From Crassostrea angulata (taxonomy: Eukaryota), in assembly GCF_025612915.1 (NCBI RefSeq), contig NC_069116.1, positions 6,090,123 through 6,154,122 of the forward strand: a DNA stretch of 64,000 bases, given 5' to 3'. Made by a program: the position numbers and the translations under genes. The notes beneath the pieces were generated by a model. That model saw nothing but the letters and a program-made list of their open reading frames with translations, made no database searches and was not told the origin of the DNA. Shown piece after piece: positions 12,188 to 12,618 of this stretch (position 1 is its first letter; each line of letters opens with the position of its first letter).

Positions 12188-12352
12188 CTCCTGTTCTCTA
12201 ATTTCATTCTGTGTCAAATCATTTGTTGCTGCACATTCATTTCGTAAACCTAGCAGTAGTTTCGCTGTGCTATCTATCATAGTTTGTATGAATTCCACAT
12301 TTTTCAGAGTTTTCTCGATGACTTCGTTCTCTGCGTCTGAAGAGTCGGACAT
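12188..12352 (-). CDS. KSR: Kinase suppressor of Ras (KSR)-like first coding exon, CA1 N-terminal helix
   Basis: ATG at 12352 (- strand) encodes MSDSSDAENEVIEKTLKNVEFIQTMIDSTAKLLLGLRNECAATNDLTQNEIREQE. The segment LRNECAATNDLTQNEIR matches the conserved KSR CA1 segment LRTKCAVSNDLTQQEIR. GTGAGC donor. Confidence 0.7.
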
Positions 12353-12565
12353 TTTGTCACCTGATTATCTATATATACTGTTTATGTACATGCTGTCCGA
12401 CAGATTGATGCAATTACATTTCAAGTCATGTTTCAGGTAAACATCAAACACCGTAGTCGGATGACAAACGACGGAAAATATCCAATGACTTTCGCCATCT
12501 TGAATCTTGTTTAAGTCTCGCCAATCACGTGATTTAAACGAGACTTTAAAAATTGCCGGGAAAAA
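12353..12565. promoter_or_regulatory. Shared divergent promoter region between the KSR-like (-) and RFC5-like (+) start codons
   Basis: 213 bp separate the two divergent ATGs. The region contains ccaatcacgtga (a CCAAT box overlapping a CACGTG E-box) followed by a tttaaa/ttaaaaa stretch. Confidence 0.45.
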
Positions 12566-12618
12566 AATGTCAACAAAAGAGTATCCAACAACTGATAGAA
12601 ATAACCCAAATTTGCCAT
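12566..12618 (+). CDS. RFC5: Replication factor C small subunit (RFC5-like), exon 1, beginning at the start codon
   Basis: ATG at 12566 encodes MSTKEYPTTDRNNPNLPW. The ending NLPW matches the N-terminus of human RFC5. GTAAAC donor at 12619, phase 2. Exon boundaries were recalled by eye, not computed. Confidence 0.7.

Follow-up and report, generated by a model that had tools for sequence, protein, structure and literature searches.

The head-to-head KSR and RFC5 genes of the oyster Crassostrea angulata, an old animal gene pair with a probable shared divergent promoter

Conserved ancestral microsyntenic pairs (CAMPs) include pairs in 5′–5′ orientation, e.g. HSPD1–HSPE1, which has a bidirectional promoter (Irimia et al. 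2012, PMC3514665). Mammalian CpG-island bidirectional promoters are reported to be enriched for YY1, MYC/E-box, E2F, NF-Y, NRF1 and GABPA sites, are TATA-poor, and have less than 1 kb between start sites (PMC4730256). A locus of this type is described here in a 64,000 nucleotide (nt) stretch of the oyster Crassostrea angulata genome (contig NC_069116.1, positions 6,090,123–6,154,122 of the forward strand). This whole stretch is termed the window, and positions are counted from its first nt. In the window the gene for KSR (kinase suppressor of Ras) is on the minus strand and RFC5 (replication factor C subunit 5) is on the plus strand. The two are head to head with start codons 214 bp apart. The 214-bp spacer is probably a compact divergent promoter region that serves both RFC5 and the single KSR gene of the oyster, in an arrangement inherited from at least the protostome–deuterostome ancestor.

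The locus resembles CAMPs in that KSR and RFC5 are non-paralogous, are adjacent and divergent across phyla, and have a very short spacer between them. The proposed cause, i.e. shared or interleaved cis-elements, is also the same (PMC3514665). HSPD1 and HSPE1 work together and are strongly co-expressed, whereas no functional link is known between KSR and RFC5. The locus goes beyond the usual CAMPs in that promoter motifs and their spacing are conserved in molluscs, a brachiopod and a hemichordate, besides the gene order. It also has features of the mammalian CpG-island bidirectional promoters: a spacing below 1 kb, YY1-type, E-box, E2F-like and CCAAT sites, no conserved TATA box, and a replication/housekeeping gene as one partner. 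However the oyster spacer is 36% G+C and displays no ETS, NRF1 or Sp1 sites. KSR–RFC5 is a well-supported, real and very old case of a known class, the conserved 5′–5′ pairs with bidirectional promoters. The adjacency is plain in annotated genomes. No paper was found that names KSR–RFC5 as a microsyntenic or bidirectional pair; the list of about 600 pairs of Irimia et al. was outside the search, and a prior listing there is possible.

The coding features of the two genes are as follows.

12188–12352, minus strand: KSR coding exon 1 (MSDSSDAENEV...NEIREQE), start of the CC-SAM (CA1) domain (Pfam, PDB 2lpe), donor GTGAGC
8336–8479, 5550–5697, 4639–4850, 3131–3334, 981–1099 and 800–849, minus strand: further KSR exons (spliced RNA contigs L002 and L003 aligned to the window; GT-AG introns)
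12567–12619, plus strand: RFC5 coding exon 1 (MSTKEYPTTDRNNPNLP plus 2 bases of a W codon), donor GTAAAC at 12620 (tblastn, RNA contigs)
starts at 12745, 15884, 16935, 17266, 17545, 17919, 19125, 19401, 19705 and 24340, plus strand: RFC5 coding exons 2–11 (tblastn, RNA contigs, GT-AG introns)

On its sequence the minus-strand gene can be firmly assigned to KSR. The N-terminal part of the product (exons 12352–12188, 8479–8336 and 5697–5550) matches Pfam SAM_KSR1_N (3.1e-14) and SAM_KSR1, both above the curated cut-offs, and also the solved KSR1 CC-SAM structure, PDB 2lpe (1.6e-16). These matches bear out the KSR-like identity given in the initial annotation, which had been made from the DNA letters alone. 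The gene extends past the left end of the window and its kinase part is outside of it. In the oyster assembly GCA_963853765.1 the full product has 864 amino acids (aa) and displays C1 and kinase domains; the CC-SAM (CA1), C1_1 and Pkinase domains that characterize the family are all found in the full 840–864 aa products. The KSR start codon is where it had been placed, i.e. CAT at positions 12350–12352 is the ATG on the minus strand, and an in-frame TAA is at 12367, 4 codons upstream.

Several further observations concern KSR. An alternative exon at 2643–2709 (minus strand) is present in RNA contig L003, which has an 861 aa product, and is skipped in L002, which has an 840 aa product. Intron 1 shows a tandem duplication of about 600 bp at 10880–11900, with identical open reading frame strings at 11147–11299 and 11747–11899 and a (TA)n run near 11450–11550 within the duplicated part. 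At approximately 7420–8300 the same intron has a short-period tandem array that gives many offset matches.

The plus-strand gene is, with equal firmness from its translated sequence, assigned to RFC5. The joined exons match human RFC5 (PDB) with an E-value of 6.8e-166 and yeast Rfc3 at 1.9e-99. Matches of the same product to RFC2 and RFC4 are weaker, about 1e-67, which confirms the RFC5-like identity proposed earlier. The product is 99% identical to the 336 aa NCBI protein “replication factor C subunit 5-like [Crassostrea angulata]”. The translation shows the AAA+ motifs, including SRC, and belongs with the RFC5 orthogroup (human RFC5/yeast Rfc3). The ATG is at 12567–12569, with an in-frame TGA upstream at 12501, and the stop codon ends at 24436. 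The initial annotation had the ATG at 12566, one base off, and the spacer at 213 bp; the corrected spacer is 214 bp (12353–12566). NCBI gene models place the KSR and RFC5 start codons identically to those given here. KSR coding exon 1 ends exactly with position 12188, and position 12618 is one base before the end of RFC5 exon 1.

Two segments at or near RFC5 are in the window and are absent from the GCA_963853765.1 haplotype, one of about 1.4 kb in RFC5 intron 2 (14302–15684) and one of about 2.5 kb downstream of the gene (29016–31565). Both probably represent mobile-element insertions that are polymorphic.

The spacer and the elements in it are listed below.

12353–12566: spacer between the KSR and RFC5 start codons, 214 bp, putative shared divergent promoter region and both 5′ leaders, contiguous in nine RNA-seq contigs
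12370–12377: TATA-like run TATATATA, 18–25 nt from the KSR ATG, not conserved in scallop
12433–12498, minus strand: upstream open reading frame of 21 codons (MAKVIGYFPSFVIRLRCLMFT and stop), starting at the ATG within the YY1-type motif
12482–12486, plus strand: second CCAAT, oyster only
12494–12502, minus strand: YY1-type motif, GCCATCTTG on the plus strand and CAAGATGGC in the KSR direction, containing GCCATNTTG
12515–12544: inverted pair GTCTCG (12515–12520) and CGAGAC (12539–12544) flanking the E-box, within a longer oyster palindrome
12521–12525, plus strand: CCAAT abutting the E-box, oyster only
12525–12532: T-flanked palindromic E-box TCACGTGA, kept in limpet, acorn worm and starfish; scallop has TCATGTGA there
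12553–12563: E2F-like site TTGCCGGGAAA, 4 nt upstream of the RFC5 ATG, identical in scallop

The two genes form a divergent pair: they are encoded on opposite strands and face each other with their 5′ ends. The start codons 214 bp apart, together with the unbroken RNA contigs, put the predicted start sites within 1 kb of each other. The CpG observed/expected ratio of the spacer is 1.42, versus 0.62 for the whole window. With its low G+C content the spacer falls outside the usual definition of a CpG island, although CpG is not depleted. Across ten haplotypes it has sustained no substitutions and the sole variant is a length difference (A7/A6) at 12561; the short coding exons that flank it show four variable sites across the same ten haplotypes. 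The window as a whole is AT-rich and intron-containing, and is 95%–99% identical to GCA_963853765.1.

RNA evidence spans the entire spacer. The contigs (L002–L010) are Logan assemblies of sequencing runs, were found by exact-protein look-up and are unstranded. In nine RNA-seq assemblies, which come from six or more projects, a single contig holds KSR in spliced form, the complete spacer and RFC5, also spliced. Each contig has a KSR frame of 789–861 aa and the 336 aa RFC5 frame on opposite strands, 213–214 nt apart. When aligned to the window the contigs lack all introns of both genes, and the block 12188–12619 is unbroken. The KSR introns are GT-AG on the minus strand and those of RFC5 are GT-AG on the plus strand. 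Each contig is therefore a merger of two mRNAs of opposite polarity, since a single RNA cannot have its splice sites on both strands. Thus the divergent KSR and RFC5 mRNAs overlap at their 5′ ends within the spacer, and the whole spacer is transcribed.

It is very improbable that the merged contigs are an artefact of assembly (from genomic DNA, unspliced RNA or weak antisense RNA), with KSR starting at a distant 5′ exon and no promoter shared: the contigs are indeed unstranded de Bruijn-graph products in which a few bridging reads could join two transcripts, however the same merger recurs in nine runs from at least six projects, the removal of every intron on both sides argues against DNA contamination, a stop in the KSR frame precedes the ATG by 4 codons, six other species conserve the KSR N-terminus and exon-1 boundary beside RFC5, and the NCBI models give the same start codons. 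A far-upstream non-coding KSR exon, which had been raised earlier as an arrangement that would speak against a shared promoter, is not needed, as the contigs run unbroken through 12188–12619.

The pair was then compared across animals. RFC5 orthologues were looked up with their called neighbours, and the gap was taken from the KSR start codon to the RFC5 start codon. The survey covered molluscs, a brachiopod, an annelid, a hemichordate, echinoderms, amphioxus, a teleost and one coral. The linked loci are as follows.

Oyster (bivalve): head to head, 214 bp
Pecten maximus (scallop, bivalve): head to head, 225 bp
Lottia gigantea (limpet, gastropod): head to head, 296 bp
Lingula anatina (brachiopod): head to head, 416 bp
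Saccoglossus kowalevskii (acorn worm, hemichordate): head to head, 186 bp
Asterias rubens (starfish, echinoderm): head to head, 524 bp
Dunckerocampus dactyliophorus (pipefish, teleost): head to head, 974 bp

The identity of the KSR neighbour was confirmed in five loci by tblastn with oyster KSR exon 1, and in Asterias by reading the N-terminus. The orientation is constant, i.e. KSR minus and RFC5 plus in all seven linked loci. The comparison of orthologues proposed in the initial annotation thus yields a head-to-head pair with a gap below 1 kb in six further species. Adjacency in distant lineages with the orientation kept, Capitella excepted, is what characterizes a conserved ancestral microsyntenic pair. 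The simplest reading is that the KSR–RFC5 pair dates at least to the protostome–deuterostome common ancestor and has sustained several later losses. The compact bidirectional promoter that was suggested from the oyster sequence is supported by the RNA contigs, in which mRNAs of both polarities reach into the spacer, and by conservation of the pair and of its motifs across species.

In vertebrates the human gene order at 12q24 is NOS1, KSR2, RFC5, WSB2 (PMC12713192), and the same order is found on mouse chromosome 5 (PMC2688241). The orthologues that are paired in oyster are thus immediate neighbours in both mammals, and in the teleost they also have the same head-to-head orientation. A WD40 gene, probably WSB2, follows RFC5 in the pipefish, and this fits the mammalian KSR2–RFC5–WSB2 order. 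The gap between KSR2 and RFC5 in mammals is tens of kb and KSR2 is tissue-restricted; the human genes are presumably head to head, some tens of kb apart. Unlike the oyster spacer, the 974 bp pipefish spacer has neither the YY1-type motif nor the E-box. On its RFC5 side it displays CRE, Sp1, CCAAT, ETS and E2F sites. A WSB2-like gene downstream of RFC5, as in vertebrates, was not found within the oyster window.

Other neighbours of RFC5 also recur. A Haspin-like kinase gene is downstream of RFC5 in both Lingula and Capitella, and a PP2C gene is downstream of it in both Asterias and Strongylocentrotus. Other parts of the RFC5 neighborhood may therefore be conserved within clades.

Two motifs recur in the spacers. 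The YY1-type sequence GCCATNTTG is found on the same strand in five of the six invertebrate spacers (oyster, scallop, limpet, brachiopod and acorn worm). The motif is separated from the KSR ATG by 129 nt in acorn worm, 142 nt in oyster, 143 nt in brachiopod, 145 nt in scallop and 146 nt in limpet. In shuffled spacers GCCATNTTG has a probability of 0.002–0.007 per spacer. It is a catalogued YY1 motif which peaks at approximately +26 from start sites in mouse promoters (PMC2249607). The ATG in this conserved motif, which opens the 21-codon frame in oyster, also opens frames of 13–21 codons in the other four species, as read from their spacers.

The second motif is the T-flanked E-box. It is found beyond the YY1-type motif in oyster, limpet and acorn worm, with 15–23 nt between the two. 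It starts 173–175 nt from the KSR ATG in the three molluscs and is 42–123 nt from the RFC5 ATG; the starfish TCACGTGA is 68 nt from the RFC5 ATG. The E-box is labelled by the general MiT/TFE–USF consensus. The form TCAYGTGA is found in five of the six invertebrate spacers, with a shuffle probability of 0.007–0.02 per spacer. Among dinucleotide shuffles of the oyster spacer, about 2% contain TCAYGTGA and about 6% contain CACGTG. Because the motifs are modestly rare in shuffles, and a CCAAT in 214 bp is unremarkable, the evidential weight is in conservation across species and not in any single occurrence. The composite GCCATNTTG-N(10–40)-TCAYGTGA is found once per locus and only in the spacer in oyster, scallop, limpet and acorn worm, when 25–38 kb of each are read on both strands. 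It does not occur in 20,000 shuffles of each spacer.

Two YY1-type motifs of the form CAAGATGGC(G/C) are also present in Acropora (positions 9800–9900 of that locus), 197 and 107 nt upstream of the RFC5 ATG. They point away from RFC5, one is inside a local palindrome, and KSR is not within 10 kb.

A third element goes with RFC5. Canonical E2F sites are found 17–127 nt upstream of the RFC5 ATG in brachiopod, annelid, amphioxus, coral, sea urchin, starfish and pipefish. With the bivalve site, an E2F-type site is thus near the RFC5 ATG in every species examined, also where KSR is unlinked. The 600 bp upstream of RFC5 contain no CACGTG in the pipefish or in any of the four species that lack the linkage. 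As the unlinked species keep E2F and not CACGTG, the E-box and the YY1-type motif go with KSR or with the pairing, and E2F with RFC5.

A global MAFFT alignment of five spacers misplaced the limpet and acorn worm motifs, and a motif-anchored comparison was used in its place, along with pairwise alignments against shuffles. Pairwise alignment against shuffles gives z = 8.6 for oyster–scallop and z = 6.1 for oyster–limpet. Alignment of the entire spacer is above chance only within the molluscs; farther out the conservation consists of motifs and spacing.

Not all elements that are visible in the oyster spacer are conserved. The fusion of a CCAAT box with CACGTG was correctly noted in the initial annotation, i.e. 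CCAATCACGTGA at 12521–12532, and is a single occurrence in the window. The composite is not kept in related promoters, where the E-box alone is retained. Neither CCAAT box is found in scallop, limpet, brachiopod, acorn worm or starfish, and both are rejected as conserved elements. The earlier statement that there is no obvious TATA box holds in that no conserved one is present; a TATATATA run does exist at 12370–12377. It is unlikely to be a functional TATA box, being unconserved and too close to the KSR ATG.

The oyster palindrome (12505–12552) is centred on the CCAAT/E-box, with arms at 12505–12520 and 12528–12543 that are 81% complementary. The RNA fold of 12490–12566 (plus strand) has −20.4 kcal/mol and z = −3.69 in oyster. 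The inverted pair corresponds to ATCTCG/CGAGAT in scallop, where the outer G-C is changed to A-T, and to TCTCG/CGAGA in brachiopod. A conserved hairpin around the E-box was considered and is not borne out, as in scallop, limpet, acorn worm and brachiopod the fold does not reach significance, and in starfish it is marginal. The KSR leader at 12353–12500 shows no structure (z = 0.14).

The mechanism proposed for the spacer is a TATA-independent divergent promoter in which the two initiation zones cross. KSR transcripts would start near the E-box, at about 12510–12535, since the YY1-type motif would then be located approximately 10–30 nt downstream of the start, as in mammals. The KSR leader would be about 150–180 nt and would carry the short upstream open reading frame. 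RFC5 transcripts would start within the last 80–100 bp or so, driven mainly by the E2F-type site; upstream ATGs on the plus strand are found up to 12485 and none later, which suggests that most RFC5 starts are in this segment. Starts that cross in this way would provide the overlap, 31 nt or more, without which the contigs could not merge in every RNA-seq assembly. The control elements would be interleaved within about 70 bp, so that a breakpoint would damage one gene. It is proposed that the linkage has been long-lasting because the interleaved elements are inseparable. Co-regulation or cis-constraint has been put forward as an explanation for conserved 5′–5′ pairs generally (PMC3514665). In vertebrates the spacer would have expanded and the two promoters come apart.

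A stronger version is also conceivable, though it is put forward tentatively. The YY1-type motif, doubling as the start of the upstream frame, and the T-flanked E-box about 20–30 nt away may form an urbilaterian bidirectional promoter core, with constant spacing to the KSR start codon, that has survived in protostomes as well as deuterostomes for over 500 million years.

Several observations weigh against a shared and ancestral promoter. In Capitella KSR is 5 kb off, on the same strand as RFC5 (inverted), with another gene between, and this breakage occurred without obvious harm. The pair is not adjacent in Branchiostoma belcheri (amphioxus) or Acropora (coral). In Strongylocentrotus (sea urchin) no gene is called within 10 kb upstream of RFC5, and KSR exon 1 was not found within that distance in amphioxus, coral or sea urchin. 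The much larger vertebrate spacer shows that coupling of KSR with RFC5 is not obligatory. With respect to the motifs, the starfish spacer has no YY1-type motif, the brachiopod E-box is displaced and not T-flanked, and the bivalve E2F-like site is one base off the consensus (the E2F core is GGCGGGAAA). The labels YY1, USF/MiT-TFE/Myc and E2F are consensus matches only. Finally, the spacer could be bridged by low-level read-through or by antisense transcripts from upstream, given that the RNA assemblies are unstranded.

With regard to the YY1-type motif, the conserved GCCATNTTG might mainly represent the start codon and Kozak context (CAAGATGGC) of an upstream open reading frame that throttles KSR translation. 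The ATG of the motif has A at −3 and G at +4 in all five species, and it opens frames of 13–21 codons that end before the KSR ATG and begin MAKVI, MAEVI, MADIE, MADVL and MALGG. The spacing of 129–146 nt between this ATG and that of KSR is conserved, and the RNA contigs show that this part of the spacer is transcribed. However conservation of the peptide stops after about four residues and the motif is missing in starfish. In addition the bases outside of the ATG fit the YY1 consensus, which itself contains ATGGCG and is located just downstream of start sites (PMC2249607). Translational control as the main reason for the conserved motif is thus considered doubtful. The two readings of the motif are mutually compatible.

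The spacer could also consist of two independent core promoters that simply abut, with the YY1-type motif and E-box belonging to KSR and the E2F site to RFC5. The linkage would then be passive, as breakpoints would seldom fall within a stretch of only about 200 bp. The YY1/E-box module does keep its distance to the KSR ATG (142–146 and 173–175 nt in molluscs), while that to the RFC5 ATG is variable (35–123 nt), and E2F remains with RFC5 where KSR is unlinked whereas the E-box does not. The broken pair in Capitella and the expanded vertebrate spacer also fit this arrangement. Set against these are the overlap of the mRNAs, by which the initiation zones cannot be physically separate, and the position of the elements, which are interleaved within about 70 bp. 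Moreover the orientation and closeness are kept in six distant lineages, and this exceeds the usual persistence of neutral linkage (PMC3514665). Independent promoters are therefore judged unlikely, and the shared divergent promoter remains the preferred explanation.

Elsewhere in the window the same motif vocabulary is found at 37869–38521, with GCCATGTTG at 37869, GCCATTTTG at 38051 and 38513, and TCACGTGA at 38129–38136. The CpG observed/expected ratio is locally high near this patch (1.52 at 38101). The patch may be another promoter, although no gene could be recognized at that place.

Long plus-strand open reading frames are located at 47375–48475 (367 aa), 50129–57253 (2375 aa) and 57656–58390 (245 aa). 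These show weak C2H2/ZNF462-type zinc-finger matches that are below the Pfam cut-offs, and 47375–58390 is probably one large zinc-finger gene on the plus strand. A 170 aa open reading frame at 32784–33293 (plus strand) contains ...RYIDDTLS... and resembles a reverse-transcriptase remnant; it has no Pfam match at E ≤ 0.01.

No new kind of mechanism emerges from the KSR–RFC5 locus. In animals, gene order is under selection at few places, and deeply conserved head-to-head pairs belong to these. The KSR–RFC5 pair provides a test case of about 200 bp, with three candidate elements and with natural breaks (Capitella, amphioxus) or stretching (vertebrates). If the urbilaterian core is real, it would be one of very few examples in which promoter sequence and geometry are conserved across phyla. 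The dosage of a RAS–MAPK scaffold would also be tied to an E2F-driven replication gene by way of crossed start sites. KSR2 is an obesity and metabolism gene. The adjacency of KSR2 and RFC5 in human is probably a relic of the ancestral promoter, and as such it may help in the interpretation of regulatory variants between the two human genes.

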